IMG/VR virus record: IMGVR_UViG_3300037115_000242 | DNA from: an uncultured virus (IMG/VR IMGVR_UViG_3300037115_000242) | Taxonomy: Duplodnaviria; Heunggongvirae; Uroviricota; Caudoviricetes | DNA length: 64,000 nt | Strand: one strand, 5' to 3' | Shown here: positions 30,156 through 48,322 of the stretch, in pieces | Layout: every line of letters begins with the position of its first letter | Numbering within the stretch: the stretch's first letter is position 1 | Notes under the pieces: generated by a model | Databases searched by the model: none | What the model saw: only the letters and a program-made list of their open reading frames with translations | Told to the model about the DNA's origin: nothing | Position numbers and translations under genes: made by a program

Positions 30156-30671
30156 ATGGTCAAGCGCCAGCCCAAAGGCACACCAGTCGGAGGTCAGTTC
30201 GCCGAAGGACGCAAGCCCGAAGGCAACGACCTCACTACCTCCTCCGTCAACCCCGGATTCGGCTCGCGCTACGGCGGCGGCGAGCACTACCTCACCGACG
30301 AGGGAGTCACCGTCACCATGTGGCGCAAGGGTCAGAAAGTCCGCTTCTATGACAACGAGGGGAACCAAGTTGGACCTGAGCAGTCCAACGTGGCTCCCGC
30401 TGTGGCGTACATCCACGCCAATGGCTGGCAATCGGAACTCGACTACACGGTCGTCAAGGCTCGCGAAGTGAAGAAGGGCGAGTACATCCTCCTGCACGGG
30501 ACTATCTGCGAGGTCATGGACGAAGCGGAGATCGAGGCCGAGGAAGACATCTTCGGCCAAAAACTCGACCGGCTTCGCCTTCGTCGCACGGACACTGACG
30601 AGGTAGGAACCATGCCCTTCGGCCCTCAAGGGATCGTGCGCTCACTGCCCTCCATGACCCGTACCAACTAA
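30156..30671 (+). CDS. Leader-tagged protein 1
   Basis: MVKRQPKGTPVGGQFAEGRKPEGNDL; motif at 30123-30131. Confidence 0.88.
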   Translation: MVKRQPKGTPVGGQFAEGRKPEGNDLTTSSVNPGFGSRYGGGEHYLTDEGVTVTMWRKGQKVRFYDNEGNQVGPEQSNVAPAVAYIHANGWQSELDYTVVKAREVKKGEYILLHGTICEVMDEAEIEAEEDIFGQKLDRLRLRRTDTDEVGTMPFGPQGIVRSLPSMTRTN

Positions 30672-30714
30672 GCGACCTGTCGCACCCATAGTGAAGGATG
30701 AGACGGAGGACCGT

Positions 30715-31518
30715 ATGACCAATCGACAGCCGAAGGGCACACCCGTGGGTGGACAGTTCTCTGAAGGACGCAAGCCGGACGGCAGCGACTTAGTGGACGA
30801 CCGCGACATTGCCACGCGGGACTACATGAACTCGCAGAGGGGGAAACAGTTGCCCGCCCGCGATTACTCCCGTGAGGCTATCGACGCGCACAAGGACGCG
30901 ATTCTCGACGCAGAGCAGAATGTGGAGTCAACCATCGGCTCCTACGCCCCGGACGCGCTTTTCAACAGCACGACCCGCGAACTTCACGACAACATGCAAA
31001 CCATCGTTGACAACCAGAAAGAGATCATCTACGAACTCGAATCGCAACTTCGCGCCATCCGCGAACAGCCGAGTCCGCGTGTCTACATTTCTCCCGACGG
31101 AAACTGGGGTGGGGCCGAAGGTCTACTTCTCTTGAGTGACGCCGACGTCGAGAAGGTAGGCGACCTGAGCGAACTGTACGAGGAGTACGGGGACAACATG
31201 ATCGACGGGGTGCGCGAGCGTCTCGAACCAAAGCCCGAGTTGGTGCTCTCCTACAACGACTGGCACGACGTCGCCGAAGCAGTGGGCAATCTCACCGACG
31301 CGTGGAATACGACTCAAAACTTCTCGCCAGAGATGGATACCGCCATGAGTCGTCTGTACTTCTCATATGACACGCCTCACGACATGGTGGTCAAGTCGAT
31401 TGTGGACATTCAGAACGCATGGCGAGATGTCGATTGGGGTGATGACCCGGACGCGGTGAAGATCGACAAACTGGTGGACTCACTCGGAGACTTCCTCACC
31501 ACCAAGGAGCCGTCATGA
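30715..31518 (+). CDS. Leader-tagged protein 2 (acidic, helical)
   Basis: MTNRQPKGTPVGGQFSEGRKPDGSDL; motif at 30682-30690; GGAGGA RBS. Confidence 0.88.
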   Translation: MTNRQPKGTPVGGQFSEGRKPDGSDLVDDRDIATRDYMNSQRGKQLPARDYSREAIDAHKDAILDAEQNVESTIGSYAPDALFNSTTRELHDNMQTIVDNQKEIIYELESQLRAIREQPSPRVYISPDGNWGGAEGLLLLSDADVEKVGDLSELYEEYGDNMIDGVRERLEPKPELVLSYNDWHDVAEAVGNLTDAWNTTQNFSPEMDTAMSRLYFSYDTPHDMVVKSIVDIQNAWRDVDWGDDPDAVKIDKLVDSLGDFLTTKEPS

Positions 31519-32204
31519 CCAACCGCCAACCCAAGGGCACACCCGTGGGTGGACAGTTCTCAGAAGGACGTAAGCCCGAAGGCGGAGACCTCTACGACGA
31601 GGTAAACGACAGTGTTGAGGTCGAGGAGTTCGAGGGTAACCTCACCGCATCCTACGAGGGGTACGTCTTCACCATCTCACCGCCGGACCCCGAGGCGCAT
31701 CGCGCTCATTGGACCGCAGAGTTTCGCGCCGACGAAAGTTCCGTCGAGCAGTACGCGACCAAGGGGGAGTTCGCTTCTTTCGAAGAGGCCACCGACCTGT
31801 TCAAGGAATGGCCCGCAGTCGTGAAGTCGATGACACACGCCAATGACGGATTGAAGGCCAGCGCCGGAGACCTCGAACTCACGGAACGACTCAATGATGT
31901 CCATATCCTGTGGCAGGAATTCGACGACAACGAGCAACTCTACGACGGAGAGTTTGAGCAAATCTATGCCGTGTTAGATGAGGCTACTCGACGACTCGAC
32001 GGCGACCCGAACGATCCGACATCTACCAACGCGAAGAACCTCGAACTCTCTGACAAAGTACACAACGCACACATTTTGATTCTGAACTTCGACAAGGACG
32101 GCACAGCGATCAGCCGAGATGACTTCGACTACATCACTGAGGCCATTGAGGAAGCCCGAGAGACGCTGGGGGCTGGTGGTCCTCACGGGGCCGTCGCCGA
32201 GTAA
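31515..32204 (+). CDS. Leader-tagged protein 3 (very acidic, internal helical duplication)
   Basis: Leader; ATGA-coupled; LELTERLN.. and LELSDKVH.. repeats. Confidence 0.88.
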   Translation: MTNRQPKGTPVGGQFSEGRKPEGGDLYDEVNDSVEVEEFEGNLTASYEGYVFTISPPDPEAHRAHWTAEFRADESSVEQYATKGEFASFEEATDLFKEWPAVVKSMTHANDGLKASAGDLELTERLNDVHILWQEFDDNEQLYDGEFEQIYAVLDEATRRLDGDPNDPTSTNAKNLELSDKVHNAHILILNFDKDGTAISRDDFDYITEAIEEARETLGAGGPHGAVAE

Positions 32205-32206
32205 CG

Positions 32207-32920
32207 ATGAACCGGCAACCTAAGGGCTCGCCGGTCGGTGGTCAGTTCGCGCAAGGTCGCAAACCTGACGGACCAGAACTCGACTTCGAGGATGACGAGT
32301 TTGAGATCACCACTCTTGAGCATGACGGTCTTCCTGCGGCGACGTTCTCGCACGTAGTCCACATCGGATCGCTCGACGCGGACGAGAAGCGGGGGTGGTC
32401 GCTCGAAGGCGATGGTCTTTCCGTGTCAACGGAACCCGAGGCGTGGGAAGAGATCGCTGGTCTCGGAGGCAATCAGTGGTGGACGCTCACCAAGAGCAAC
32501 AATGTCTTTCTGGATGCGCACGAACTCTCCGACGAGCAGCGTGACGTCATCAACAATTGGGGTGTTGAACGCGGCTATCTGGTCAAGCAGGACGGCTGGC
32601 GTATCGAGTGGTTCGACGACGAGATGGATGACACCATGAGCACTGTCCTCGACACCGAAGAAGAAGCGCGGGAGGAACTCGACACAATGGAGGTCGATCA
32701 AGAGCCGGTCCTCGTCGAGCAACTCGTCGCTGGTCCGAACTTTCCCGATGCGGCGGGAGCAAGCAACGCGGATCAGGTCATTTTGTCCGTATGGGCTGAC
32801 GAAATGTCCGACTTCGATGGCGTGTGGTGGAATGACGACCTCGCGCCCGAGCATCTCAGTGCTCCCCGAGCCGTCATTTTCAAGAGCAGACTGGCGGAGT
32901 GGGGTCGCACCCATAACTAG
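32207..32920 (+). CDS. Leader-tagged protein 4 (very acidic)
   Basis: MNRQPKGSPVGGQFAQGRKPDGPEL; VHIG...SLEGDGLSVS..PEAW; FDGVWW. Confidence 0.88.
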   Translation: MNRQPKGSPVGGQFAQGRKPDGPELDFEDDEFEITTLEHDGLPAATFSHVVHIGSLDADEKRGWSLEGDGLSVSTEPEAWEEIAGLGGNQWWTLTKSNNVFLDAHELSDEQRDVINNWGVERGYLVKQDGWRIEWFDDEMDDTMSTVLDTEEEAREELDTMEVDQEPVLVEQLVAGPNFPDAAGASNADQVILSVWADEMSDFDGVWWNDDLAPEHLSAPRAVIFKSRLAEWGRTHN

Positions 32921-32924
32921 AGAT

Positions 32925-34040
32925 ATGACTAAGCGCCAGCCCAAGGGCACTCCCGTAGGTGGACAGTTCGCCGAAGATCGCAAACCAGATGGTGCCGACC
33001 TGGTGAGACTTCCTGACGGTCGCGAGTTCCCCAGTGACTATGAAGATGAGTTACGTGGTGAGACAGCGGCTCACGAACGTTCTGAGCCGAACGAGCACTC
33101 AATGCCGTCTGCTCTGGCCGGAAATGTCTCAAACGTGCAGGTGGGCTCACGAACTCCGTGGGGAACTGCCGACTACGTGAACCACATCGCACCAGGCATC
33201 GTCTCGGTCGCCACGCCGGGACACGGCGGAGTCAAACTCTCGCCCGAGCGCAACAAGAAGGTGCCCGTACCTTTGCGCACGAAGTCGGGCTGGTACGAAG
33301 AGGACTGCGAAGCGTACATCCCCATGATGGTCCACGCGGGTGACATGAAGCGAACGGGCGAGTCCACCGAAGACGCATTCAAGCGATCCGAACTCGGCGT
33401 CATGAACTGGTTCCCCGAGGGATACGAGGAGGCTTACTCGGTGGAGTTGCCCGTCGGCGCGTCACTCATGAAGGACGAAAAGACCTGGCTGACGACACAC
33501 GCTCTCGACGAGATCGCGATCTCCGCCATTGGGACGGGTGACGGAATGGTCAAGGTCACGGTCTGCGTAGGTGGTCGCGCCAAGTACGGACACGATGGAG
33601 TATCCGAGCGCGAGATTCTCGTTCCTAAAGAGGAGTACGACAGCCCTGATTTCCGTCACCCCATCGGTAAGCACAGCGGGTCGTTCGTGGTGGATTCTCG
33701 ACAGAACTACGAGGACGTAACTCCACCGCCGAAGGCCCCGAACCCTCCGGCCCCGCGCTATCGCGAGATCAATTTAGGGTTAGTAACGAACGCTCAACGT
33801 GAGAGAGCCCAACGCGACCTGGACAAGAGATATCGCTTCAGTAACGGCAGTGTCCAATCAGTGCGTGAGGTCATCGAGAGTGGTGGCATCGCCAGCAAGT
33901 CGTCAATGGAGAACAACGGTCGACGCACCTACTACCTACGACGAGCGATTGAGGCCGAGGGAGAACCGGGACAGGACACCTTCAACGCTCTGGAGGTTTC
34001 CAAGGCTCTATGGGACGCGGTCGTCGCGCCAGCGAATTAG
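32925..34040 (+). CDS. Leader-tagged protein 5 with DUF7007-like domain
   Basis: MTKRQPKGTPVGGQFAEDRKPDGADL; TPWG..APGI..TPGHGG..LSPERN..GWYEEDCE; ATG 7 nt after CATAAC. Confidence 0.85.
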   Translation: MTKRQPKGTPVGGQFAEDRKPDGADLVRLPDGREFPSDYEDELRGETAAHERSEPNEHSMPSALAGNVSNVQVGSRTPWGTADYVNHIAPGIVSVATPGHGGVKLSPERNKKVPVPLRTKSGWYEEDCEAYIPMMVHAGDMKRTGESTEDAFKRSELGVMNWFPEGYEEAYSVELPVGASLMKDEKTWLTTHALDEIAISAIGTGDGMVKVTVCVGGRAKYGHDGVSEREILVPKEEYDSPDFRHPIGKHSGSFVVDSRQNYEDVTPPPKAPNPPAPRYREINLGLVTNAQRERAQRDLDKRYRFSNGSVQSVREVIESGGIASKSSMENNGRRTYYLRRAIEAEGEPGQDTFNALEVSKALWDAVVAPAN

Positions 34041-34063
34041 TTTTCGCACCCATAACTAGAGGT

Positions 34064-34306
34064 ATGACTAAGCGACAGCCAAAGGGCACACCAGTGGGCG
34101 GGCAGTTCGCCGAAGGCCGCAAGCCCGAGGGTGCAGAACTGACTACCTCTCCCGATGAAAAGACGACCACCGTCAAGTGCTCAGACTGTCAAACGGAAAT
34201 CGATCCACTTGACGTGTTCCCCGAGGGGCGTTGTCTCAACTGTCATGCAGCCGTGACGCCGATGCCCACCGCCGAAGAAGTTCGACGAGCATGGGGGGTT
34301 CGATGA
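34064..34306 (+). CDS. Leader-tagged protein 6 (Zn finger)
   Basis: Leader, CSDC...CLNC; ATG 7 nt after CATAAC. Confidence 0.85.
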   Translation: MTKRQPKGTPVGGQFAEGRKPEGAELTTSPDEKTTTVKCSDCQTEIDPLDVFPEGRCLNCHAAVTPMPTAEEVRRAWGVR

Positions 34307-34851
34307 CCACACGTCAGCCCAAGGGCACCCCCGTCGGTGGACAGTTCGCAGAAGGACGCAAGCCCGAAGGGGTCGTGTTAGCGCCGGTTTCACCGCTGTT
34401 CAATAAGGCCACCGTCGTCGATCACCAACGTCAGGTCAAGATACTCGAAGCGGAGATCGAAGACCTCTATCAGGACGCCTTCGTCAACGACACGAAGCCC
34501 GACAGTAGCGATCTACTTGCTTTGAAGAACGACTTGATTCATCAGCAGCACGAGATCATCCGCAAGCAGGCCAAGGAACTCGCAGACCTCCAGAGAGATG
34601 CTGGTGACTTTCAACTGCGTGGCATCATTCGTGCCAACGTTCGCGACCGTCTATCCAACGTCGTTGATCTTGGCGATGATGATGCCCGTATCCGCGAGTT
34701 CTACGCTCAGATTGACGAACTTATGGAGCACCACTTCGCTAGGTTCGCCCCTGAGGAGAATGATGCGCTAGACGGCGTTGCGGCATCGGAGACGAACTTC
34801 TTCATGAAGCGGCTCGACCTCGACACGATGTCACTGAAAAAGGATGCGTAA
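34303..34851 (+). CDS. Leader-tagged protein 7 (coiled coil)
   Basis: MTTRQPKGTPVGGQFAEGRKPEG; ATGA-coupled. Confidence 0.87.
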   Translation: MTTRQPKGTPVGGQFAEGRKPEGVVLAPVSPLFNKATVVDHQRQVKILEAEIEDLYQDAFVNDTKPDSSDLLALKNDLIHQQHEIIRKQAKELADLQRDAGDFQLRGIIRANVRDRLSNVVDLGDDDARIREFYAQIDELMEHHFARFAPEENDALDGVAASETNFFMKRLDLDTMSLKKDA

Positions 34852-35705
34852 TGACCAATCGACAGCCCAAGGGCTCACCCGTAGGTGGACAGTTCGCAGA
34901 AGGACGCAAGCCCGAAGGCGGAGACCTTTCCGTCACCGGGGAGAACGATGCGAACATGGAACTTGCCGAGCGACTGAACCGACTCGACTGCATGATGCAA
35001 GACCTCGAAGAGTTCGGAGCATCCGTTCTCGATGGGGAGATGTCCTTCATCCACGCCACTCTCACGGATGCTCGTACCGCCCTCGCCGAGCCTGGTGCCA
35101 CCTTCGAAGGCAGGTACAAGGACACGTTGCCCGACGTGAATCAAGAAGATGGCGTCTTCACTCTTGGCGATCACACCTATGAGTTCAAAAAGACGGGACC
35201 AGAGAACGACATCACGGAGTACACACTCACCAACGCCGAGGGTGGCGGAGGATGGCGTTTCGGCTACGACCGCCTGACCCGTCGCGTCACGGCGCATGGC
35301 GTCGCTCCAGTTCGCCCCTCGGCGGAGTGGCGTGACAAAGGTGAGGCGGACATCCGCACCGTGGCTCGCTTGTTCGAACCAGACGCGAGACTGATTCAAC
35401 TCGATGGCGAGACATATCTCATCGGCGGAAATCCGTGGCCCCTCAGCCCCTCACACCTGCAAGGAATCGCTACCGGCGAGATGATGCTGAACAGTGGCAA
35501 GACCGAGCATGACCTTCGCGCCTACGTGTCCCAGCAGCGCAGCGACACGGCCCGAAGTGAGACCGAGCGTCCTGACATGGCGAAGTCGTTCGCGGAGACG
35601 CGTAGTTACATCGACGGAATTGAGATCGCCATCAACCTCGGCGAGGAAGCGGCGAAAGCCAACACCGTGGGTGCAATGGACGCACGCTTCAAGGAGAAGT
35701 CATGA
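34851..35705 (+). CDS. Leader-tagged protein 8
   Basis: Leader; TAATG-coupled; MELAERLN..DGE.. shared with protein 3. Confidence 0.87.
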   Translation: MTNRQPKGSPVGGQFAEGRKPEGGDLSVTGENDANMELAERLNRLDCMMQDLEEFGASVLDGEMSFIHATLTDARTALAEPGATFEGRYKDTLPDVNQEDGVFTLGDHTYEFKKTGPENDITEYTLTNAEGGGGWRFGYDRLTRRVTAHGVAPVRPSAEWRDKGEADIRTVARLFEPDARLIQLDGETYLIGGNPWPLSPSHLQGIATGEMMLNSGKTEHDLRAYVSQQRSDTARSETERPDMAKSFAETRSYIDGIEIAINLGEEAAKANTVGAMDARFKEKS

Positions 35706-36196
35706 CCAATCGACAGCCCAAGGGCACACCCGTTGGTGGACAGTTCGCAGAAGGACGCAAGCCCGAGGGTGCTGATCTAGCATTCGTTAATCCTGACTTC
35801 AGTGTCAGGAATGAAGGAGCGAGCGCAGTGGTCTTAACTCCCGAGCAAGAAGAGGTAGCCGCTGCCTACAAGGTCGCGGCGCTCTGGTCGACCAGTGGTG
35901 ACGACGACGAGCCGTTAGACGCCGAATACGGGATCGACCAGATCAGCGAAGAATCCAATGAGGAGATCGCCAAGGACGTCGTCGAGTTTTGGGAGCGAGC
36001 GAAGGCCGAAGGTCTCACCGAGCATTGGACACCGGGGCAGTTCGGCCACGACTTCTATCTGACGCGGGCGGGGCACGGAGCCGGATTTTGGGATCGAGGA
36101 TTCGGCTACGCGGGCGGGCGTCTCACCGAGATGGCCAAGTCCTACAAGGAAAAGACCCCTATCGTCGGGGACGACGGTTCAATCTATTTCGAGTAA
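35702..36196 (+). CDS. Leader-tagged protein 9 (phage-type domain)
   Basis: Leader; AALWS, GHDFYLTRAGHGAGFWDR. Confidence 0.87.
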   Translation: MTNRQPKGTPVGGQFAEGRKPEGADLAFVNPDFSVRNEGASAVVLTPEQEEVAAAYKVAALWSTSGDDDEPLDAEYGIDQISEESNEEIAKDVVEFWERAKAEGLTEHWTPGQFGHDFYLTRAGHGAGFWDRGFGYAGGRLTEMAKSYKEKTPIVGDDGSIYFE

Positions 36197-36238: not shown

Positions 36239-36748
36239 ATGACCAATCGCCAACCCAAGGGAACGCCAGTGGGTGGACAGTTCGCGGAAGGTCGCAAGCC
36301 CGAGGGTGGCGACTTGGAAGTTTCAAGCACATCCGTCGAGCCTCTCAAGAAGAAAATCTCGTTCGGAAAAGTTGACGGCTACGGCAACGGTCGCAAGAGT
36401 TGCTCCGTCGATGTTCAGGTCTCCATCTCGGAGAACAACGAAGGTCAAGCACGGTTGAGCATCCAGGGCAACGTATGGAACGCAGGCCACACTGACATCA
36501 TCAGTGGCGGGCAGAACGTTGACGAAATGTTGCGACTCGTCGATGACCCCAAGATGCGCGAGATCGCCGAAGTGTGGAAACGTTGGCATCTCAACGACAT
36601 GCGTGTCGGGTGTGAACACCAGCGGACGCAGCCGAAGGGCTCTGTCGAGGTTGGACAGGAATGTCCCGAATGCAGTTATCGCTACGGTTCGGCGTGGCTC
36701 TACGAGGAACTCCCACCGGAGGTCATCGAGCAAGTGAGGTCGTGGTGA
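36239..36748 (+). CDS. Leader-tagged protein 10 (phage-type domain)
   Basis: Leader; WKRWHLNDMRVGCEHQ, CPEC.YRYGSAW; motif at 36206-36214. Confidence 0.87.
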   Translation: MTNRQPKGTPVGGQFAEGRKPEGGDLEVSSTSVEPLKKKISFGKVDGYGNGRKSCSVDVQVSISENNEGQARLSIQGNVWNAGHTDIISGGQNVDEMLRLVDDPKMREIAEVWKRWHLNDMRVGCEHQRTQPKGSVEVGQECPECSYRYGSAWLYEELPPEVIEQVRSW

Positions 36749-41242: not shown

Positions 41243-42029
41243 CCGTCAGCCCAAGGGCACACCCACCGGAGGACAGTTCGCAGAAGGGCGCAAGCCTGAG
41301 GGCAGTGATCTCCCGGCGATCACCCGATCCAAGGGCACGGCTGTCGGCGGCTTCGTCGTTGGTGGAGGATATCGAGGCATCACCGACGACCTTGACAGTG
41401 TGGTCGAAGCAACTGCCGAGTACATGACCACCGAGTTCAATATGCCGGTCGAGATTCGTTTCAACTCTGATCGTCGCCGTGGCGGTGCGTGGCTCAACTT
41501 CGATGGGAACACCTCAGCGGTCGGTATCAGCGCAAACCAGCACGAGACGAAAAAAGAGGCTAAAGAAGGTCGGTACTACAAGTCGTTCGGCGACGACAAG
41601 GCTGGGGCTCAGGAATACCTCGCTAGTTGCGACGGAGAGGTACACCTCGACGTCTACGTCGTTGGAGAGTTCTTGCGCGACCCCAGTGAAGCCGAGGAGA
41701 CCGCCAACGGCTCTCGTCGATTGATGACACCGATTGGTAACGTCGGCGACGCTCTTACCTTCGTGCGCGAGCACACCATCGTTGGCGACTTTGCCGAGAT
41801 AGAGCGTCGTACCCTCATTCGCCTAGAGAGCATCAAAAAGCGTGATGCCCTGAAGGAGAAGGCGAACAAAGACTACGAACTAGCGGTGGGCATCATTGTC
41901 AAGAACGGTGAACACACTCGTGAGCAAGCGATCAAAGAAATACAGCCCGCGTACGCCGCTCAGTACAGAGAGTTCGAGCAGGAACTCTTCGACGACTACT
42001 GGGCTCAAATCGCGAAAGGATCATCGTGA
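41235..42029 (+). CDS. Leader-tagged protein 19
   Basis: MTNRQPKGTPTGGQFAEGRKPEGSDL. Confidence 0.87.
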   Translation: MTNRQPKGTPTGGQFAEGRKPEGSDLPAITRSKGTAVGGFVVGGGYRGITDDLDSVVEATAEYMTTEFNMPVEIRFNSDRRRGGAWLNFDGNTSAVGISANQHETKKEAKEGRYYKSFGDDKAGAQEYLASCDGEVHLDVYVVGEFLRDPSEAEETANGSRRLMTPIGNVGDALTFVREHTIVGDFAEIERRTLIRLESIKKRDALKEKANKDYELAVGIIVKNGEHTREQAIKEIQPAYAAQYREFEQELFDDYWAQIAKGSS

Positions 42030-42433
42030 ACCGTGAACCCAAGGGGACGCCGACTGGCGGACAGTTCGCACCAGGACGCAAGCCCGAAGGCGGAGACCTC
42101 CCGGTCGAGCCGATTATGACGCCGCACGGTCAACTCGTCATCAACGCCTTTCGTGCTGACAGTGGACAAGTGGTCGCCCTCATGGGTATTTTGACACCGT
42201 GCTGCAACGCCTCCGGCAAGGGGCTCTACGACGAAGATGCTGACCGTGGATACGTGGGATGTCGTCGTTGTTTCAATCCGGTCGACGACATTCACGGCTC
42301 GTGTTTCAGCGATGAAGAGTTCAAGGACGACACTCTGACGCAAGCGATTGCCGACTATTGGTTTGATGGCGACAGTGAGAAAGTCGTGGGGCTACGCACG
42401 GTGATCGCCGAACGTATGAAGGACCCCTCGTAG
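42026..42433 (+). CDS. Leader-tagged protein 20 (Zn-binding)
   Basis: MNREPKGTPTGGQFAPGRKPEGGDL; TPCCNASGKG..CRRC. Confidence 0.87.
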   Translation: MNREPKGTPTGGQFAPGRKPEGGDLPVEPIMTPHGQLVINAFRADSGQVVALMGILTPCCNASGKGLYDEDADRGYVGCRRCFNPVDDIHGSCFSDEEFKDDTLTQAIADYWFDGDSEKVVGLRTVIAERMKDPS

Positions 42434-42476
42434 TCGCACCCATAACTAGGGGTAGAACGTTCGCAAGGAGACATCA

Positions 42477-42707
42477 ATGAGGAAGCGTCAACCCAAGGGC
42501 ACTCCCGTCGGCGGACAGTTCGCTGAAGACCGCAAACCAGAAGGCGCTGACCTGTCCGAGCCGAAGTCGTATCTGCCTTCTGAATTGGAGCCGCGTCCTG
42601 ACTCCAAGTTGACGAACTTCATGCTGAAGCCCCGGTCACGATCTTTTGCGTTGGACTGGGCAGACCGGCGTCGGAAGCGGGAAGAAAAGAAGACCACGAA
42701 GTCATGA
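42477..42707 (+). CDS. Leader-tagged protein 21 (short)
   Basis: Leader plus about 50 aa; motif at 42436-42444; AAGGAG RBS. Confidence 0.8.
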   Translation: MRKRQPKGTPVGGQFAEDRKPEGADLSEPKSYLPSELEPRPDSKLTNFMLKPRSRSFALDWADRRRKREEKKTTKS

Positions 42708-43528
42708 CCAATCGTCAACCCAAAGGAACGCCAGTCGGCGGGCAATTCTCTGAAGATCGCAAGCCCGAAGGCAACGAACTATCGGAACCCTCACTCGCCA
42801 GTTGGAGACCAGTTCTTCGCAACGGAACCAGAGTGGTCGACTGGGTTCCCTCTGAACTGACCGAAGACCAATTGATGGTGCAGGTCTGGTTCCGTGGTGA
42901 CGAAGATGAAGACGACGTCAGTGACGCAGTGATGGGCGGACTCAGTCCTCGCGAAATCGCCAACACCATGTTTCAGATGGGAGACGAAGCGGTCACGCCG
43001 AGGGACTTCTACGACTTCTTCGCGGACGACGACTACGTCAAGATTGCCTTTCGACCCGACGCGGACCTCCAGACAATGATTCAGAAGATCAACGAACTCG
43101 GAGATAGTGACCGTCGATTCAATTTCTCACCCCACGACGTAGATCGCTACCGTCAGATCATCAACGACGAATTCGCCACACCAGATGGAAGTCCCGTGGC
43201 CTACTTGCCGAACGAGAAGGGCGCTGAACTGCTCTCCCGTTCGTCACTGGAAACGATGGAGGAGCACAGCACCGATGAGGGCACTTACTGGAGAGCAAAA
43301 CTCAAGGTCGAGGACTTCGTGCTCAACGTTCGCAACGATGGATTAAGCGGACCGAACTCGTACGTCTTCATGGGCATTCCTGCTGCCAGTCAGACGGACA
43401 TGCTCACCTCACTCAACGCCGAAGTGCTCAACGGCTTCCCCGGACTCGAACGAAGTGACGGCGGCAAAGACACTGAAGCACTCGATGTTCTCTGTACGCT
43501 TATCCAAGTGATCGAAGAGAACTCATGA
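42704..43528 (+). CDS. Leader-tagged protein 22
   Basis: Leader; YLPNEKG...NVRNDG...GFPGL domain shared with protein 17. Confidence 0.87.
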   Translation: MTNRQPKGTPVGGQFSEDRKPEGNELSEPSLASWRPVLRNGTRVVDWVPSELTEDQLMVQVWFRGDEDEDDVSDAVMGGLSPREIANTMFQMGDEAVTPRDFYDFFADDDYVKIAFRPDADLQTMIQKINELGDSDRRFNFSPHDVDRYRQIINDEFATPDGSPVAYLPNEKGAELLSRSSLETMEEHSTDEGTYWRAKLKVEDFVLNVRNDGLSGPNSYVFMGIPAASQTDMLTSLNAEVLNGFPGLERSDGGKDTEALDVLCTLIQVIEENS

Positions 43529-44091
43529 GTCAGTCGCGAGTTCCCAAGGGCACCCCCAAGACGGGTGGGCAGTTCGCGGCAGGCCGTAAGCCTGAAGGCG
43601 ACGACCTCGTTCTTCCTCAACGTGGTCAGGCCGTAACGACCGCCCCGTGGACACAAGAGAAACTCATTGAGCGCAAGGTCTTCTTCGCCAAGCGAGTCGC
43701 CGCACAGAACAAAGAGACGACTGGCTACGCCTACGACTGGTACGCGATGGAGAGGGTCATGGTCGCCTACGGAGGAGTGGCTGCGGTGCCACCGATGGAA
43801 CCCGAAGACAACATCTTTGAATTAGTGGACAACGGAACATTCAGTAGCGATCCCGCAATCATGAGAGAAGGAGACCCTAGCCAATGTCATGCCAACACCG
43901 CCCAGTTGTGGACCGACGGAGAGATCGACGAAATCTGTACCGGGTACGCACTCAGCGGAGACGGCCTGTGGAGACAACACAGTTGGGGACGGAAGAACGG
44001 CAAAACGGTCGAGACGACTGAGCCACGTCTGGCGTACTACGGCTACGTCGTTGAAGACCCGAAAGACTGGTCCGAAAAGCAACTTCGCTAG
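43525..44091 (+). CDS. Leader-tagged protein 23, possible transglutaminase/papain-like Cys-His domain
   Basis: MSQSRVPKGTPKTGGQF; QCHAN..TGYALS.DGLWRQHSW..ETT. Confidence 0.82.
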   Translation: MSQSRVPKGTPKTGGQFAAGRKPEGDDLVLPQRGQAVTTAPWTQEKLIERKVFFAKRVAAQNKETTGYAYDWYAMERVMVAYGGVAAVPPMEPEDNIFELVDNGTFSSDPAIMREGDPSQCHANTAQLWTDGEIDEICTGYALSGDGLWRQHSWGRKNGKTVETTEPRLAYYGYVVEDPKDWSEKQLR

Positions 44092-44123
44092 TCGCACCCA
44101 TAGTGAAGGAGAGAAGGAGTCAC

Positions 44124-45104
44124 ATGACCAATCGACAGCCGAAGGGCACCCCCGTAGGTGGACAGTTCGCCGAAGGACGCAAGCCCGAGGGCGGGGACCT
44201 CTATGTAGACGACGGACCTCAGTACCACATCTCAATGACTGAGGGCGACATCCTGACGGGCACCAAGGTGCTCGCGGCTGATGTCGCTACCGGAGACTCG
44301 CTCTACTTAGATCAGAACGACATCGAGACTGCGAGTGACTCTGCGTACGACGAGGACAAAGGCGAAGTCCGACTCGAACTCACTAACGGACGGATCGTCG
44401 ATGTCAATGCGGACGACGTGTTCATTGTCGAAGTTGCGCGAGCGGGCAGTGGTTCCACGTTCGACTTCGGCGACGGACCGGTAGCCGCGCACCAGCACCG
44501 CTTCGGACTCGGATGGGTTGCCGATACCGCCGATGTTGCCGACACCGTGTGGGTCGATCCCGAGGCGCGAGTCAAGGACAACGCTGTGGTGAAGGGTCAT
44601 GTACGAATCTTCGATCAGGCAGTCATCAGTGGCAACGCCTGGGTAGCCGACGACGCGATGGTGTGCAACCATGCAGAAATCTCGGATGACGCCAAGGTGT
44701 TCGGTCGTGCGTCAGTGAGTGGAAACGCCAAGGTGCGTAACCGGGCTCGGGTCTTCGGCAGTGCGCGAGTTCTCGACTTCGCAGAAGTACGTGGCAACGG
44801 ACTCGTCTCAGGTTTCGCACGCATCTCTTCTGAAGCGAAGGTCGCACAGAATGCCAACGTCACGGACGACGCGCACGTCACCGGCTCTGCGATCATCAGC
44901 GGACAGGCGTGGGCGAGTGGACACTCGATCATCTCCGATGGTGCCAAGGTTCATGGCGAGGCGTGGGTGTGCAACGAGTCTCGGGTGGGCGGCATGGCAG
45001 TCGTCGCGGGCACTGTCATGGTCTGTGACAAAGCGTGGGTACACGTCAACGCCGAACTCAGCGGTAGCGAGAAGATCACTGGAGATACCGAACTCCGGGG
45101 ATGA
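44124..45104 (+). CDS. Leader-tagged protein 24, left-handed beta-helix
   Basis: Leader; motif at 44094-44102; GWVADTA plus hexapeptide repeats; paralog of protein 14. Confidence 0.87.
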   Translation: MTNRQPKGTPVGGQFAEGRKPEGGDLYVDDGPQYHISMTEGDILTGTKVLAADVATGDSLYLDQNDIETASDSAYDEDKGEVRLELTNGRIVDVNADDVFIVEVARAGSGSTFDFGDGPVAAHQHRFGLGWVADTADVADTVWVDPEARVKDNAVVKGHVRIFDQAVISGNAWVADDAMVCNHAEISDDAKVFGRASVSGNAKVRNRARVFGSARVLDFAEVRGNGLVSGFARISSEAKVAQNANVTDDAHVTGSAIISGQAWASGHSIISDGAKVHGEAWVCNESRVGGMAVVAGTVMVCDKAWVHVNAELSGSEKITGDTELRG

Positions 45105-45196
45105 AATTCGTTGCACACACCGGATTTTTTGAGAAACCCCAATTGTGTAGTTTTTGCACCCATAATTAGAGATAGCAAAAAGCACGAGGAGTGAGC

Positions 45197-46231
45197 ATGG
45201 CAACGAACGTAAACCGACAGCCCAAGGGCACTCCCGTCGGTGGACAGTTCGCGGAAGGACGCAAGCCCGAGGGCGGCGACCTTTTCGAGACCACCAAGCC
45301 CCAAGATCCTGAACTTCAGGACCGTCAGGCCGCACTGATCGCCGGACTCGGCATGAAGGCCACCGTCATCGCTGCCGGAGATCGCCCACGGTTCGCTGGC
45401 GACCAGAAGAAGGTAGATCGCTGGTGGGAGCGTAAGTTCATTGCGGGTGAATACTCACCCGGCGTCTCTCCCGAGGACCGGGACTTCAAGAAGATGCCCG
45501 ATGACTACACCCCGAGCATGACGCCGGGTAACGCCACCACTCATAATCGCCGGACTCACCGTATGCACTACGCCGGTCCCGAAGTTGACATGAGAATGCC
45601 GTCGTACGCCTCGGTCAATCGTTTCGCATCGGAGAACCCCGGCGAATCATTCGACGTCCCCGTCACCGCCGAGTACCCCGGTGGCTCCATCGAAGGATGG
45701 GTCCGCGTCGCCCGCACCGAGAACGGTACGTGGCGGGCCAAGGGCCTCGGTTTCTCTCCCGAGCAGACCGCCTACGTTGACGAGGCCGTGCTGTGCGTTC
45801 TCGAAGCACGCCGACCCTCGCGAGCACTGAGTGGCGTGGCCTCACTGGTTGAAAGTCGCCGCGAGCGTTTCGCCCGACAGGGTGTGCAGGTCCCTCAGTT
45901 GGTGACGTCGGGCTGGATAAAGAATCTCGGCTACGACTCCGCCACCGACACCATGATGATGGAGACCGAGACCGGGAAGTCCTACGGCTACAAGGTGCCA
46001 CTGCGTACCTACCAGGCCGTGGCACTGGCCCACTCCCCCGGATCAGTCTTCAACCGCATCGTGAAGAAGAACGCCGAGCGGGTCGAGGTGACGAAATGCC
46101 CGAACTGCAAGCGCACGTCCGCCGTACCTGGACACAAATGTCCACCCACCATGTCCGCGCCGCGCAATGACGACGAGGTTCGTGGGGACAACACGCGCAT
46201 CCGTCGCTGGGTGAGCAAGCACCGCGTCTAA
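45197..46231 (+). CDS. Leader-tagged protein 25 with C-terminal KTSC-like domain
   Basis: Leader; SGWIKNLGYDS..GKSYGYKVP..Y..A.SPGSVFNRIVK; motif at 45156-45164. Confidence 0.85.
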   Translation: MATNVNRQPKGTPVGGQFAEGRKPEGGDLFETTKPQDPELQDRQAALIAGLGMKATVIAAGDRPRFAGDQKKVDRWWERKFIAGEYSPGVSPEDRDFKKMPDDYTPSMTPGNATTHNRRTHRMHYAGPEVDMRMPSYASVNRFASENPGESFDVPVTAEYPGGSIEGWVRVARTENGTWRAKGLGFSPEQTAYVDEAVLCVLEARRPSRALSGVASLVESRRERFARQGVQVPQLVTSGWIKNLGYDSATDTMMMETETGKSYGYKVPLRTYQAVALAHSPGSVFNRIVKKNAERVEVTKCPNCKRTSAVPGHKCPPTMSAPRNDDEVRGDNTRIRRWVSKHRV

Positions 46232-46233
46232 TC

Positions 46234-46470
46234 GTGAAGCGTCAACCGAAGGGCACACCCAAGGGTGGTCAGTTCGCGGAAGGTCGCAAGCCAGACGGAC
46301 CTGATTTCCCGGCTACAGGCGATCTTCATCTCGGTAGTGGCGCAGTTGTCGAGGCCACCATCCATGACACAGGTGTAGTTCGTGGTGAAGCCACTCTGTA
46401 CGCGAGTCGTGGGGTCGAGCCGAAGCGGAGCCTCGCCCAAAAACTCAAGAACTCACTGCGCCGCCCGTAA
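46234..46470 (+). CDS. Leader-tagged protein 26 (short)
   Basis: MKRQPKGTPKGGQFAEGRKPDGPDF. Confidence 0.8.
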   Translation: MKRQPKGTPKGGQFAEGRKPDGPDFPATGDLHLGSGAVVEATIHDTGVVRGEATLYASRGVEPKRSLAQKLKNSLRRP

Positions 46471-46527
46471 CTCCGACCGACTTATCTGATTTGCACCCAT
46501 AACTAAGGGTAGGAAAGAGGAGCACCC

Positions 46528-47421
46528 ATGACCGCACGTCAGCCAAAAGGCATCCCTGTTGGAGGCCAGTTCGCCGAGAGTCGCAAGCCCGACGGTGGCG
46601 ATCTCGCAACATCAGTCGATACATTGCCGCCGCCCGTCGCTTCCTCGACCAAGGGGATATGGGACATCGAGCACGCCTCGAAGCCGAAGCCAATCGACCG
46701 AGGCAACGGGATCATCTCTACCTCGTTCAATCTCTCCGGCGAGCCATCGGCCAACACCGACATTTCGGCACGCATCGCGGCCTACGAGAAGCCGAATGAT
46801 CTCGACGAGAAAATTGCGGCCGCAATTGCGAGCAACGAGCCGGTCACTGTTCTCAGTGTGGGTGACGGGGCCTTCGGCGGATCGTTTCCTCGAATCGTCC
46901 AAGGCAAACTCTTTCGAGGACGTAGTGGCGATGTTGCCTTCTTGCCAACCGGGAAGCGTACGCAAGGCTTCAAGTTGAAGACGCCTCTCGACATCATCTC
47001 CGACAAGAAGCCCGCGTCCATCACCGAGTTGAATCGTCGCTGGTATGAAGGAACTGGTATCCCGCCCACCGAGCCGCTCACCTTAGAGATGCTCCGTGGC
47101 GCAAGCGAAGAGAATCCCATCGCCCTGATCTACACGCACCCCGGATTCGATGGTGAGCCCACACCGGGCTGTGTCTGGTACATCGACTACTACGAAGAGG
47201 ACGAAGACCAGGAGCCAGGAACCGGCATCGCGGGTGGCTACATGTGGGCTCCCGACGACCACGGACTCACCTCCGAGCACGGGTCGACCTACGCCAAGGA
47301 GATACTCACCAAGGGAGCCGTGGTGCCACTGAAGCCGGGGGTCAACTTCAAGACGATGACAGAGTTGCCGGAAGATCGCGCAGGTGCGTACAAGCAGTTG
47401 TTCGGAGGGGCCGATGACTAA
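46528..47421 (+). CDS. Leader-tagged protein 27
   Basis: MTARQPKGIPVGGQFAESRKPDGGDL; motif at 46493-46501. Confidence 0.87.
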   Translation: MTARQPKGIPVGGQFAESRKPDGGDLATSVDTLPPPVASSTKGIWDIEHASKPKPIDRGNGIISTSFNLSGEPSANTDISARIAAYEKPNDLDEKIAAAIASNEPVTVLSVGDGAFGGSFPRIVQGKLFRGRSGDVAFLPTGKRTQGFKLKTPLDIISDKKPASITELNRRWYEGTGIPPTEPLTLEMLRGASEENPIALIYTHPGFDGEPTPGCVWYIDYYEEDEDQEPGTGIAGGYMWAPDDHGLTSEHGSTYAKEILTKGAVVPLKPGVNFKTMTELPEDRAGAYKQLFGGADD

Positions 47422-48322
47422 TCGTCAGCCGAGGGGCATCCCAGTTGGAGGTCAATTCGCCGAAGGTCGCAACCCTGAGGGCGGAGACCTCGCGTCCGAT
47501 GGCTTGCTCGCTACTTACAGCCAGATGAGGCAAGTCTTCGAGAGTTCCGTGGTGGAGATAGCCGACGGCGACGGTTCACAACTCAACGAGACCGACCACG
47601 ACCGACTCATGGTCGCGGCTCGCAACTTCTTTGACAACCAGACGTTTCACCCACCCACCCGAAGTGGCATGAGAGAGATCGCCGAAAAGTTCGTGTATGA
47701 AGACCCCGCCGCGAAACTGATTCTTAGTCACGGCGCAACACCTCCACCGACACCACCAGAAGACCTGAAGGCGACGTTGGAGGCCATGTGGCAAGAGGCC
47801 GAGTCTGAGTACAACGAAGCGTCCAAAGACAGCGCCGATGACGAAGAGAACGTCGGATACTGGGACGGGATGAAAGCGGGAATCGGCAAGGCGCAGGTCG
47901 CTCTCGCTGACTCTGGCTGGACTCCACCGACGACCTACCCCGAGAACGAAGACGAACTTATGGTCATCTCAATGACCGTGAACCGTCGAACCGGAGAAGT
48001 CAACGTGACCACCGATGGAAAACTCTCGGGCAACACGGGGTTCCAGTACGCCTACGATCAACTCACCGAAGCGGCCAGCGACATCGTGTCGAGCAATCCT
48101 GAAGCGTTCATCACCGATCCTCTGCCTCGCACGATCACACTGAAGCACGGCACCGTATCCGCGAGCAACTACGACAACGAGCACTTCTTCCTCTCCGAAG
48201 AGGCCGTCAAGGACGCCGAGTTCCTTCAGGACGATGGTGCGTACGTCTACCTGAAACTCAAGGACGGTCAAGTCGTCCTTCTCGACCCCATCGACGTTGA
48301 GGTCTCTGACCCACCGTTTTAG
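47414..48322 (+). CDS. Leader-tagged protein 28
   Basis: MTNRQPRGIPVGGQFAEGRNPEGGDL; GGAGG RBS. Confidence 0.87.
   Translation: MTNRQPRGIPVGGQFAEGRNPEGGDLASDGLLATYSQMRQVFESSVVEIADGDGSQLNETDHDRLMVAARNFFDNQTFHPPTRSGMREIAEKFVYEDPAAKLILSHGATPPPTPPEDLKATLEAMWQEAESEYNEASKDSADDEENVGYWDGMKAGIGKAQVALADSGWTPPTTYPENEDELMVISMTVNRRTGEVNVTTDGKLSGNTGFQYAYDQLTEAASDIVSSNPEAFITDPLPRTITLKHGTVSASNYDNEHFFLSEEAVKDAEFLQDDGAYVYLKLKDGQVVLLDPIDVEVSDPPF

Follow-up and report, generated by a model that had tools for sequence, protein, structure and literature searches.

Organization of the leader genes

The window analysed here, a single stretch of 64,000 nucleotides, contains 33 genes whose products begin with variants of one 26-residue N-terminal leader, with the consensus M-T-N-RQPKGTPVGGQF-AEGRKPEGGDL, and 28 of these genes follow one another on the plus strand at 30156–48322 (Table 1). 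Both counts had been given in the original prediction and are confirmed by pattern counts; the five outlying copies lie where it had placed them. The array genes fill 98% of their interval, and with the gene starts chosen in this analysis 15 of the 27 junctions overlap by 1–8 nt. A promoter-like 9-mer, GCACCCATA, occurs 17 times in the window, as against 0.22 expected, and leader genes follow closely downstream of 13 of these copies. The element itself is peat actinobacterial and giant plasmid-like, with one of its proteins carried on a contig of at least 332 kb.

Table 1. Leader genes, GCACCCATA sites and neighbouring genes in the window
Feature	Coordinates	Strand	Remarks
Outlying leader gene	6077..7186	-	longer N-terminus, QPR form as in polyvalent proteins; cargo phrog_4265
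Outlying leader gene	12428..13342	+	cargo ArdC-N + M78 metallopeptidase (anti-restriction type)
Outlying leader gene	13657..14082	-	141 aa
Outlying leader gene	14094..14561	-	155 aa
Leader gene 1	30156..30671	+	171 aa
Leader gene 2	30715..31518	+	267 aa
Leader gene 3	31515..32204	+	229 aa
Leader gene 4	32207..32920	+	237 aa
Leader gene 5	32925..34040	+	cargo DUF7007 (105 bits); W01/W02 homologues also tagged
Leader gene 6	34064..34306	+	80 aa, Cys-rich
Leader gene 7	34303..34851	+	182 aa
Leader gene 8	34851..35705	+	284 aa
Leader gene 9	35702..36196	+	cargo phrog_1915; many homologues without tag; AF2 model
Leader gene 10	36239..36748	+	169 aa
Leader gene 11	36745..37548	+	GTG start, Cys-rich
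Leader gene 12	37545..38162	+	leader variant RQSKG
Leader gene 13	38159..38821	+	220 aa
Leader gene 14	38818..39501	+	GTG start; beta-solenoid/YdcK-like cargo; paralogue of 44124-45104
Leader gene 15	39501..39731	+	76 aa, QPR form
Leader gene 16	39742..40113	+	123 aa
Leader gene 17	40152..40979	+	paralogue of 42704-43528
Leader gene 18	40979..41242	+	GTG start, GGRF variant
Leader gene 19	41235..42029	+	264 aa
Leader gene 20	42026..42433	+	GTG start; cargo phrog_6276
Leader gene 21	42477..42707	+	76 aa
Leader gene 22	42704..43528	+	274 aa; paralogue of 40152-40979
Leader gene 23	43525..44091	+	one-residue insertion, PKTGGQF
Leader gene 24	44124..45104	+	beta-solenoid cargo (phrog_7964, E 1.4e-47); paralogue of 38818-39501
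Leader gene 25	45191..46231	+	KTSC-like cargo; W01/W02 homologues also tagged
Leader gene 26	46234..46470	+	GTG start, 78 aa
Leader gene 27	46528..47421	+	297 aa
Leader gene 28 (array end)	47414..48322	+	302 aa
Outlying leader gene	62122..62769	-	215 aa; leader the most diverged; VirB4-like ATPase two genes away
GCACCCATA, first copy	30123..30131	+	promoter-like 9-mer
GCACCCATA, other sites	12158, 12394, 16978, 30682, 32907, 34046, 36206, 40120, 42436, 44094, 45156, 46493	+	
GCACCCATA, other sites	2133, 7234, 14588, 14803	-	
VirB4/TraC-like AAA_10 ATPase	58073..60601	-	best-conserved protein common to window and leader-rich plasmids
350-aa protein	60605..61657	-	one TM-like segment, Pro/Thr/Gly-rich outer part; adjoins the ATPase in W01/W02 as well

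The leader peptide

The leader consists of a core, R-x-P-x-G-x-P-x-G-G-Q-F/W, followed by a lineage-specific tail. The strict pattern P.G.P.{1,3}GG[QR]F has 30 six-frame matches in the window and the looser pattern G.[PA].{1,3}G[GA][QRKEH][FWY] has 33, all in long ORFs, whereas 200 mononucleotide and 200 triplet shuffles yield means of only 1.09 and 0.67, respectively, with a maximum of 4. GGQF begins at residue 11–17 in 32 of the 33 proteins and at residue 28 in the product of 6077–7186 (nearest start codon used). In 31 gapless copies compared over 23 codons, two copies with a one-codon insertion being excluded, the non-consensus fractions at codon positions 1, 2 and 3 are 0.07, 0.07 and 0.40; pooled pS is 0.63, pN is 0.13 and dN/dS is 0.10, with synonymous sites near saturation. 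Strong purifying selection acts on the peptide and not on the DNA, as the original prediction had read from third-position differences, and a passively carried DNA repeat is not supported.

The leader also lacks a hydrophobic core and a Tat consensus, as had been claimed: TM-like segments occur in none of the 33 leader proteins, as against 11 of the 41 other window ORFs, and there is no twin-arginine consensus. Pfam, NCBIfam, PHROG and PDB have no entry for the peptide and a literature search returned no description of it, so that the module is, as judged from these searches, undescribed. In an AF2 model of 35702–36196, residues 1–45 are coil (pLDDT 50–57) and residues 46–164 form a domain (pLDDT 85–97); the leader is predicted to be disordered and separable from its cargo.

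Cargos and related plasmids

The cargo bodies that follow the leader range from 48 to 344 aa, and an all-against-all BLASTP (E<1e-3) links only the two paralogue pairs marked in Table 1, in agreement with the claim of unrelated cargos of about 50–350 aa. The original prediction had proposed a search for untagged homologues, and the cargo family of 35702–36196 has at least 24, which begin directly with the domain; other homologues bear another element's leader variant. Families recognized among tagged proteins of relatives are NAD-dependent DNA ligase, CCA-adding enzyme, pentapeptide-repeat, DUF2958 and DUF7007. Because no known family could be assigned to 124 of the 139 tagged relatives or to most window cargos, an “anti-defence arsenal” is for most of them a guess. 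The ArdC-N + metallopeptidase protein, the ligase, the CCA-adding enzyme and other cargos would fit a role in early establishment. The leader is absent from the window's own replication proteins (the element has DnaE, SSB, a primase-like protein, RNR and ThyX), but the earlier statement to this effect, made for the window, does not extend to relatives, which have a tagged ligase and CCA-adding enzyme.

Far from being one-off, as it had first seemed, the leader is present in 18–43 N-terminal copies in each of several related 400-kb Micrococcaceae plasmids, one of them pACHL01 from Pseudarthrobacter chlorophenolicus A6, a cultured strain; judged from these sequences, a whole class of Micrococcales giant plasmids has it as a common feature. 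The second half differs from plasmid to plasmid. Over the 12 residues that follow the aromatic, identity is 68% within the window, 46% within the relative W01 and 36% within the relative W02, but only 13–17% between the window and W01/W02. Orthologous DUF7007 and KTSC-like cargos bear the local version in each element, the leader being retained on orthologous cargos at ~40% identity. Because the tails are element-specific, they are compatible with a partner evolving together with the element.

One candidate for part of such a leader machine is the VirB4-like ATPase. Four plasmids with a 47–51% identical ATPase have 18, 28, 43 and 2 leader matches (E<=1e-3) and three other DnaE-bearing actinobacterial plasmids have 0, in a sample of 7 records plus the window in which kinship confounds the association, all positives being Micrococcales. 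The proposed co-occurrence with machinery is thus seen for this ATPase among close relatives only; neither W01 nor W02 has PF02534 (T4CP), and in the related plasmids, which PLSDB types as non-mobilizable, no relaxase, capsid, portal or terminase was found. Apart from the AAA_10 ATPase, the transfer-type parts detected come down to two FtsK/SpoIIIE-like ORFs, a CHAP hydrolase and an A24 prepilin-peptidase-like ORF, the last located in W01.

The core in phage polyvalent proteins

A leader profile search retrieves 136 proteins at E<=1e-3, and about 18 of these are long proteins with 2–7 internal motif copies, one before each module. The statement in the original prediction that motifs like PRxPxGxxxGGQF occur in some phage and plasmid proteins was right. 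Eight of 19 scanned long motif-bearing proteins contain Phage_Mu_F; the other domains include ADP-ribosyltransferase, Gln amidase, zeta toxin, Acb1, NUDIX and GNAT. In two IMG/VR contigs the motif-bearing polyvalent genes directly follow the portal gene. Pattern matches at module junctions number 74 in about 20 proteins, a few being counted twice, and the residue that follows GGQ is always an aromatic (F/W/Y). Packaging and injection are presumed for MuF-bearing or portal-adjacent phage polyvalent proteins. Since packaging should need no more than the MuF domain, an address before every module is not obviously needed, and at MuF-fusion junctions a processing role is as likely as a repeated address.

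A possible address tag

Because the core precedes modules of phage head proteins, the leader probably marks proteins that move or act with mobile DNA. Our leading reading, held tentatively, is that it is a disordered address tag for proteins carried along with the element's DNA. It would be the free-standing N-terminal form of an intrinsically disordered peptide module: phages place the core before each effector module of MuF-type and portal-adjacent polyvalent proteins, and the element encodes the modules as separate genes, all of which retain the peptide at the start. An element-encoded partner would recognize this handle and bring the soluble, mostly acidic tagged proteins with the element DNA into a new cell, where their early tasks would be anti-restriction and further roles in establishment or anti-defence. 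The address role itself, an exit of the tagged proteins from the cell and a route through the VirB4-like ATPase system are inferences.

Directly supported are the peptide and the selection on it, its modularity and lineage-specific tail, and its presence in related plasmids and phage head-cargo proteins; the core in MuF/portal-adjacent proteins, the ArdC-type cargo and the predicted disorder indirectly suggest an address. Neither the Pfam comparison nor the dN/dS value, far below 1, refutes the address idea of the original prediction, which is partly supported and stands as the leading reading, but candidate machinery (T4CP, relaxase, capsid, portal, terminase) was not found. The missing relaxase, the absence of PF02534 from W01/W02 and the non-mobilizable typing weigh against it. 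DNA ligase and CCA-adding enzyme would be equally sensible cargos if they remained intracellular, and the leader is N-terminal, whereas known T4SS translocation signals are C-terminal or internal.

Several known systems resemble this arrangement in part. In polyvalent proteins (Iyer, Burroughs, Anand, de Souza and Aravind, 2017, J Bacteriol; PMC5512222) the same core stands before each MuF-type module. They too are encoded by mobile elements (phages and conjugative elements), combine many disparate, mostly uncharacterised modules, including ArdC-N + metallopeptidase, and have solo-domain versions; the window modules, however, are 33 separate genes, 28 of them consecutive. That paper mentions neither linkers nor glycine nor boundaries, and none of its passages covered on motifs (12 of 24 places) and on short or separating peptides (12 of 23 places) describes a peptide at module junctions. 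In phage T4, IPI-III and Alt carry a capsid targeting sequence (Rao and Black, 2010, Virol J; PMC3012670), likewise a short N-terminal peptide that is the sole common feature of diverse, defence-countering proteins co-delivered with DNA. It has no sequence likeness to the leader, tagged genes are far more numerous in the window, and neither the window nor the 90 largest ORFs of W01 include a capsid, portal, scaffold or prohead protease. T4SS effector signals and the anti-defence leading regions of conjugative plasmids (Samuel et al., 2024, Nature; PMC11541004) are further comparison systems. The likeness is that, in the window, small genes of mostly unknown kind lie close together in one orientation, an anti-restriction gene included, on a plasmid-like element with a VirB4-like ATPase, but genes of leading regions are presumed to be expressed in the recipient and lack a common peptide tag, and no oriT, relaxase or T4CP was identified for the window's element. 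MuF polymorphic toxins of temperate phages place variable toxin modules after an N-terminal MuF (Jamet et al., 2017, BMC Biol; PMC5576092), a domain shared by the eight motif-bearing proteins noted above and missing from the window; the text of that paper contains none of “motif”, “linker” and “cleav”, and hence does not describe the junction peptide.

Alternative explanations

A classical signal (Sec, Tat, type IV prepilin or double-glycine bacteriocin-type leader) is suggested by the N-terminal position, the basic residues, the GG near residue 13 and the A24 ORF in W01. Such an identity is highly improbable, being largely refuted by the leader sequence itself, which lacks the hydrophobic segment and the twin-arginine consensus and has Q after GG, where prepilin leaders, cut between G and F, would have the cargo start; nor do the scanned window ORFs include a C39 peptidase/ABC transporter or signal-peptidase-type gene. 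It is also improbable, though less so, that the peptide, itself functionless, is a repeat for cassette shuffling or the relic of a split polyvalent protein. Assemblies do break at leaders, which at k=31 therefore behave as repeats for some pairs; 5 of 528 leader pairs share exact runs of at least 30 nt, and cargo families occur both tagged and untagged. The longest exact run shared by two copies, however, has a median of only 11 nt, reaching at least 20 nt in 37 of the 528 pairs; such a role also sits poorly with the dN/dS and near-saturated synonymous sites, with the tag's retention on diverged orthologues and with an array that is the same in contigs of four runs from different studies.

Recruitment inside the host cell is a more serious contender, if a rather unlikely one: the leader would dock nucleic-acid enzymes and other factors, without export, on a hub such as the element's own DNA, replisome, SSB or partition complex. 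The tagged ligase and CCA-adding enzymes, the ssDNA-binding ArdC-type protein, the element's own replication genes and the relatives without relaxase or T4CP are all consistent with this, and element-specific tails would suit an element-encoded hub equally well. Yet the phage context of the core, in portal-adjacent MuF-fused proteins, is the virion head and not the replisome, and none of the window's replication proteins is tagged. Slightly less probable again is a processing site, at which a protease would cut at or near the bond between G-G-Q and F/W, splitting polyvalent modules and trimming single-module N-termini; the cut may expose an aromatic N-terminal residue that sets protein lifetime. 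The bacterial N-end rule covers F/W/Y/L. The exact placement of the motif at module junctions, the invariant aromatic and a tagged cargo that is itself a metallopeptidase argue for processing, as does the proposal of Iyer et al. (2017; PMC5512222) that zincin-like metallopeptidases process polyvalent proteins. Against it, there is no evident reason for a single-domain protein to lose ~14 residues, ORF scans found no protease common to the window and the phage loci, and the conserved element-specific tail, C-terminal to the putative cut, would stay on the cargo. Processing and an address would be compatible, by analogy with phage T4.

A shared leader peptide on unrelated proteins

All 28 consecutive plus-strand ORFs of the array begin with a variant of MTNRQPKGTPVGGQFAEGRKPEGGDL, just as the original prediction had it, and the five outlying copies that it had also listed were recovered at their places with a looser peptide pattern. 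This looser pattern finds 33 six-frame matches in the window, every one inside a long ORF (the strict pattern finds 30), as against a mean of 1.09 in 200 mononucleotide shuffles and 0.67 in 200 triplet shuffles, with a maximum of 4. The observation of the leader, a shared N-terminal peptide of about 26 residues, is genuine, and its statistical support is overwhelming. In 32 of the 33 proteins GGQF starts at residue 11-17, and in the other at residue 28; the residues R, G, P, G, G, F, R and P do not vary in the 33-row alignment. The array is 98% coding, with overlaps of 1-8 nt at 15 of its 27 junctions, a count that depends on the start codons chosen. Its 33 leader copies within 64 kb, 28 of which are consecutive, make the window an unusually rich case.

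It had been claimed that selection acts on the peptide, DNA differences between copies falling largely at third codon positions, and the codon analysis bears this out. Across 23 codons of the 31 gapless copies (two copies with a one-codon insertion being excluded), the fraction departing from the consensus is 0.07 at the first codon position, 0.07 at the second and 0.40 at the third, with pooled pS of 0.63, pN of 0.13 and dN/dS of 0.10. The longest exact DNA run between two copies has a median of 11 nt, reaching at least 20 nt in 37 of 528 copy pairs and at least 30 nt in 5. Because dN/dS is so low and common DNA runs are so short, the conserved unit is the peptide, not a DNA repeat.

Behind the leader, each of the 33 genes encodes a single body of 48-344 aa, and two Pfam domains are found in the ArdC-like gene only. 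The bodies had been described as unrelated cargos; this holds for most of them, which have no relatives in the set, the exceptions being two paralogue pairs. TM-like segments are found in 0/33 leader proteins vs 11/41 other window ORFs. The bodies are net acidic in 28 of 33 cases, with a mean charge of -0.064 per residue as compared with -0.027 for the other ORFs (Mann-Whitney p = 0.017). For one cargo, of the phrog_1915 family, many homologues (121-224 aa) begin directly with the domain, such untagged proteins making up at least 24 of 33 inspected sequences, and a few bear another leader variant. An AlphaFold2 model of this protein (26-row alignment) has coil over residues 1-45 (pLDDT 50-57), followed by a helical domain predicted with confidence over 46-164 (pLDDT 85-97); Foldseek returned no PDB match for the model at E<=0.001. 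From the untagged homologues and the modeled coil, it follows that the leader is an add-on to its cargo, predicted to be disordered. Two protein-library sequences, P0068 and P0072, start with two tandem leaders, the core occurring twice within the first 32 residues.

Features of the window and of a phage contig bearing related motifs
Feature	Position	Strand	Match or content
Leader-gene array	30156-48322	+	28 consecutive leader ORFs
Leader gene, ArdC-like	12428-13342		ArdC-N (ArdcN), 53.9 bits; Peptidase_M78, 31.8 bits
Leader gene	32925-34040	+	DUF7007
Leader gene	35702-36196	+	phrog_1915 family
HerA/FtsK-type ATPase	21240-22991	+	PDB HerA, E 8e-7; PHROG labelled terminase large subunit, E 1e-11
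VirB4-like ATPase	58073-60601	-	842 aa; AAA_10 (VirB4/TraC-like), 37.8 bits vs cut-off 27.5
Macro-domain ORF and YdjM-like ORF	7261-7869 and 7731-8561	-	139-nt overlap as listed
GCACCCATA sites	12158, 12394, 16978, 30123, 30682, 32907, 34046, 36206, 40120, 42436, 44094, 45156, 46493	+	
GCACCCATA sites	2133, 7234, 14588, 14803	-	
Small proteins, phage contig L044 (contig positions)	14070-14645, 19908-20726, 21782-22261		start K-[FY]-N-P-Y-H-D-x-x-G-R-F

Known families and literature

Whether the leader is a characterised Pfam domain, a question raised with the original prediction, is answered in the negative for the 28 array proteins and the five outlying ones; nor does any NCBIfam or PHROG family cover it (33 proteins each). 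Matches above curated cut-offs are confined to bodies, namely DUF7007 and the ArdC-N/Peptidase_M78 pair, and weaker body matches include beta-solenoid/YdcK-like and KTSC. The leader profile has 0 matches to PDB sequences at E<=10. Resemblances to the GGQ motif of release factors, the GGQ at the C-terminus of Pup, AT-hooks and SH3 ligands were put aside as presumably due to chance. For residues 1-30, the best named cluster in a protein atlas is LPD28 ("large polyvalent protein associated domain"), which at 0.75 falls under the bar and is a lead only. The peptide is not described in the literature searched, subscription journals and supplements lying outside that search. In term searches of the two most relevant papers, "linker" is absent from PMC5512222 and PMC5576092, "motif" and "cleav" are absent from PMC5576092, and no junction peptide figures in the PMC5512222 passages around 12 of 24 places with "motif" or 12 of 23 with "short", "peptide" or "separated by".

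The leader on related plasmids

A tblastn search with a 28-aa leader gave no match in phages and only 4 weak ones in plasmids, which led to the related plasmids. These nearest named relatives are Micrococcales plasmids of 400-600 kb with DnaE 37-40% identical. At E<=1e-3 the leader profile matches 18 times in a Pseudarthrobacter sp. plasmid (W01, NZ_CP061722.1), 28 times in an Arthrobacter sp. plasmid (W02, NZ_CP104273.1), 43 times in pACHL01 of P. chlorophenolicus A6 (W04, NC_011879.1) and twice in a Curtobacterium plasmid (W03), as opposed to 0 matches in three other DnaE-bearing actinobacterial plasmids (Euzebya, Nonomuraea, Rhodococcus). Scanning IMG/VR with the profile gave no relative, and scanning one genome per species gave one Brevibacterium contig.

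In W01 and W02, 52 of 57 pattern matches lie 2-12 codons past the start codon. The tail that follows the core reads AEGRKPEGGDL in the window, AATAHSEPxVSL in W01, A-x-T-A-H-S-E-A-x-G-V-L in W02 and AEGxKAEAExTL in the Brevibacterium contig; identity among tails is 0.68 in the window, 0.46 in W01 and 0.36 in W02, vs 0.13-0.17 between the window and W01/W02. The cargos with DUF7007 and KTSC-like domains have W01/W02 homologues (39-42% identical) that bear the local leader.

Of 139 tagged proteins drawn from W01, W02 and the protein library, 15 match Pfam at E<=1e-3, which leaves 124 without any match; because most are without a known family, the tagged proteins would, if the leader is an address, form a pool of candidate anti-defence and host-takeover functions. 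The matches are NAD-dependent DNA ligase (1), CCA-adding/poly(A) polymerase-type enzymes (2, one clustering with a member from a Microthrixaceae MAG), DUF7007 (2), DUF2958 (2), pentapeptide repeats (2), hexapeptide repeats (2), GNAT and KTSC, with weak matches to DHHA1 and DUF6745 under the curated cut-off. W01, W02 and W04 have jumbo-phage-like gene content (DnaE, RNR, CCA-adding enzyme, peptidyl-tRNA hydrolase, NAD ligase and NAD salvage genes) despite the label "non-mobilizable plasmid", and annotation gaps that possibly hold tRNA arrays.

The leader core in phage proteins

PRxPxGxxxGGQF-like motifs had been put forward for some phage and plasmid proteins, and a profile search of 1.84 billion representatives now documents them: 136 proteins match at E<=1e-3 and 53 at E<=1e-10, long phage-type proteins included. 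Fourteen of the 136 come from the window itself or are nearly identical to its proteins, and most of the others are N-terminally tagged proteins of 44-467 aa. Long proteins (468-2335 aa), each with 2-7 internal copies, account for some 18 matches; a further long match, P0082, is a spurious repeat protein. In the 19 long or multi-copy proteins scanned, Phage_Mu_F (MuF) occurs in 8, the set also containing ADP-ribosyltransferase, glutamine amidase, zeta toxin, ART-PolyVal, Acb1, NUDIX, GNAT and HNH domains; the motif itself lies outside every Pfam family. Each module is preceded by h-x-K-[YF]-[NDS]-P-x-Q-[PA]-R-x-P-K-G-[TS]-P-x-G-G-Q-[WF] (74 pattern matches, a few counted twice), of which the stretch from R through the aromatic is the core of the window leader.

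On one IMG/VR phage contig (L045), the portal gene is directly followed by one for a MuF polyvalent protein with four motif copies, then by a protease/scaffold-like gene, the major head protein and tail genes. On another IMG/VR contig (L044), the portal is followed by three motif-bearing multi-module proteins and by small proteins that start with short motif forms; three of these small proteins lack the P-K-G-x-P-x-G-G insert. Because the L044 short form is without the insert, the long core is apparently one branch of a wider family of junction motifs.

Candidate machinery

The VirB4-like ATPase has homologues 47-51% identical in the Pseudarthrobacter, Arthrobacter and Curtobacterium plasmids, and its family (homologues P0197-P0302), with further members recorded in Citricoccus, Rathayibacter, Cellulosimicrobium and Phytoactinopolyspora, occurs on 200-600-kb replicons of Micrococcales and their kin. 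Intein-type domains (PF05204, PF14528) are present in at least 8 of the homologues (1080-1414 aa), which is unusual in a conjugation ATPase. On the question of which machinery co-occurs with the leader, all four leader-bearing plasmids, W01-W04, encode a close homologue, with only a 30% relative in the Euzebya plasmid and none in the Nonomuraea or Rhodococcus ones; this is co-occurrence within a handful of related records, which do not make an independent test. The ATPase has no PDB relative at E<=0.1, and prediction of its complex with the leader (score 0.00 in two runs, controls not folded) speaks neither for nor against an interaction. Together with a neighbor having one TM-like segment, the ATPase is conserved, and the two may be regarded as candidate machine parts only.

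The HerA/FtsK-type ATPase has no tblastn match (E<1e-5) in W01 or W02. No capsid, portal, scaffold or prohead protease was found among the 41 non-leader window ORFs (Pfam; PHROG on 40), and scans of the window, W01 and W02 detected no MuF, relaxase or T4CP. The related plasmids are typed non-mobilizable, and PF02534 (T4CP), PF05065, PF04860 and PF04233 are absent from W01 and W02. Capsid, portal and terminase PHROGs matched 0 of the 90 largest W01 ORFs, though diverged virion genes may have escaped all these scans; these 90 ORFs include two FtsK/SpoIIIE-like ATPases, a tailspike-like GH28 protein and a CHAP hydrolase.

Comparison with known systems

Sec signals are built around a hydrophobic h-region, to which Tat signals add a twin-arginine motif. 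The earlier statement that the leader is neither stands, the alignment containing no RR-x-F-L-K and no hydrophobic run. Double-glycine leaders of the bacteriocin/PCAT type have a helical consensus and end in GG, where a C39 peptidase ABC transporter cuts; GG is present in the window leader but the helical consensus is absent, and the window ORFs scanned contain no C39 peptidase or ABC transporter family. Substrates of T4SSs (VirB/D4, Dot/Icm) usually carry their signals at or near the C-terminus. A VirB4-type ATPase is indeed encoded in the window, whereas the leader is N-terminal in all 33 window genes and in the great majority of W01/W02 matches.

Polyvalent proteins combine 2 to 15 disparate domains per polypeptide (Iyer et al. 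2017, PMC5512222), unlike the window genes with their leader and one body. They are specified by phages or conjugative elements and lie among virion or T4SS genes, of which the window scans showed the VirB4-like ATPase but no capsid, portal, MuF, relaxase or T4CP. Only the ArdC-like gene, 1 of the 33, shares with them an ArdC-N plus zincin-like metallopeptidase module, and the leader genes are nearest in kinship to the solo-domain relatives of polyvalent proteins. The capsid targeting sequence of phage T4 is described as the sole feature common to diverse injected proteins that counter host defence (PMC3012670). The leader is alike in logic, being a short N-terminal peptide on otherwise unrelated proteins, but the T4-type sequence goes with a genome that encodes a capsid, portal, scaffold and prohead protease, the last of which removes the leader, and the window scans found none of these four. 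Being single-module proteins, with no virion genes found, the leader genes fall outside both classes as defined.

What the leader may do

The leader would belong with the shared address-type tags, borne by cargo that is delivered or associated with DNA. We tentatively read it as an address or handle: a partner encoded by the element would recognize it on proteins that travel, or work, together with the element's DNA. In phages the tagged modules would be head cargo, and in plasmids the tagged proteins would be handed on during transfer. This reading is suggested by a disordered but selected peptide with a universal core and an element-specific tail, on soluble, acidic cargos; by its position, N-terminal where the protein has a single module and ahead of every module in head-cargo proteins; and by its restriction to mobile elements, the recognisable cargos acting on DNA, tRNA and host defences. 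The weak point of the address reading is the machine.

The leader might instead dock enzymes, as a recruitment handle, at a hub on element DNA inside the cell, a role that the ligase and CCA-enzyme cargos would suit but that we consider rather unlikely. A protease site, separating modules and trimming N-termini, would fit both the junction position and the invariant aromatic after GGQ; unlikely as we hold this to be, it is compatible with an address, as in T4. That the leader is a recombination junction or fission relic is very improbable in light of the dN/dS value and the short common DNA runs, and a classical secretion leader is scarcely credible for a peptide with no hydrophobic segment.

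To return to the address reading, it may extend, doubtful as this is, to one ancient "travel with the DNA" ticket, serving both phage heads and a VirB4-type machine of giant actinobacterial plasmids. If so, some 3-8% of annotated plasmid features (18-43 genes each; 33 in the window) would be injectable effectors, an actinobacterial counterpart to the large effector arsenals of Gram-negative T4SSs, readable from sequence via the tag. As an address, the leader would make it possible to list, by a rule read from sequence, which proteins giant actinobacterial plasmids and some phages dispatch or use along with their DNA; it would also be a portable tag for cargo loading. It links two usually separate fields, phage head cargo and plasmid establishment genes. 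Even should the address reading fail, the leader itself would still call for an explanation. Strong selection keeps this disordered peptide of 26 residues on dozens of unrelated proteins in each element, and it is missing from Pfam, NCBIfam, PHROGs and the searched literature. Because pACHL01, with its many matches, resides in a cultured and harmless soil bacterium, Pseudarthrobacter chlorophenolicus A6, the question is directly testable.

A promoter-like 9-mer

The 9-mer GCACCCATA occurs at 17 sites in the window vs 0.22 expected. Every site faces a downstream gene, a leader gene in 13 of 17 cases, and no conserved -35-like sequence is visible upstream. GCACCCATA thus looks like an element-specific promoter or operator that would divide the array into ~10 units. 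At 32907 and 34046, only 9 nt separate GCACCCATA from the ATG, which suggests leaderless mRNAs.

The element and its assemblies

Array sequence is present in 20 public runs, from peat and other metagenomes in 17 studies; 4 of the runs are marked as possible sources, and no RNA run is listed among the 20. Contigs of four runs span the whole array at >=99% identity, bar ~1% SNPs in one run. Public peat assemblies (runs X3, X7, X10 and X13; 29500-49000) break exactly at leaders, and joints in the run assemblies are short contigs bridging leader/promoter repeats or other leader genes; they are not read as rearrangements. Because assemblies fragment at leaders, leader arrays are likely under-assembled and under-counted in metagenome catalogues. 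The DNA of 27702-33000 has no match in the phage collection, and one window protein is also recorded on a 331,861-bp contig.

Beyond the HerA-like and VirB4-like ATPases, the window encodes a class II ribonucleotide reductase, ThyX, DnaE, SSB and a primase-like protein, along with a PD-(D/E)XK nuclease, an SNF2 helicase, a Macro-domain protein and a YdjM-like membrane protein; no tRNAs are found in it. Since the Macro-domain and YdjM-like ORFs overlap as listed, one of the two starts probably lies further downstream.
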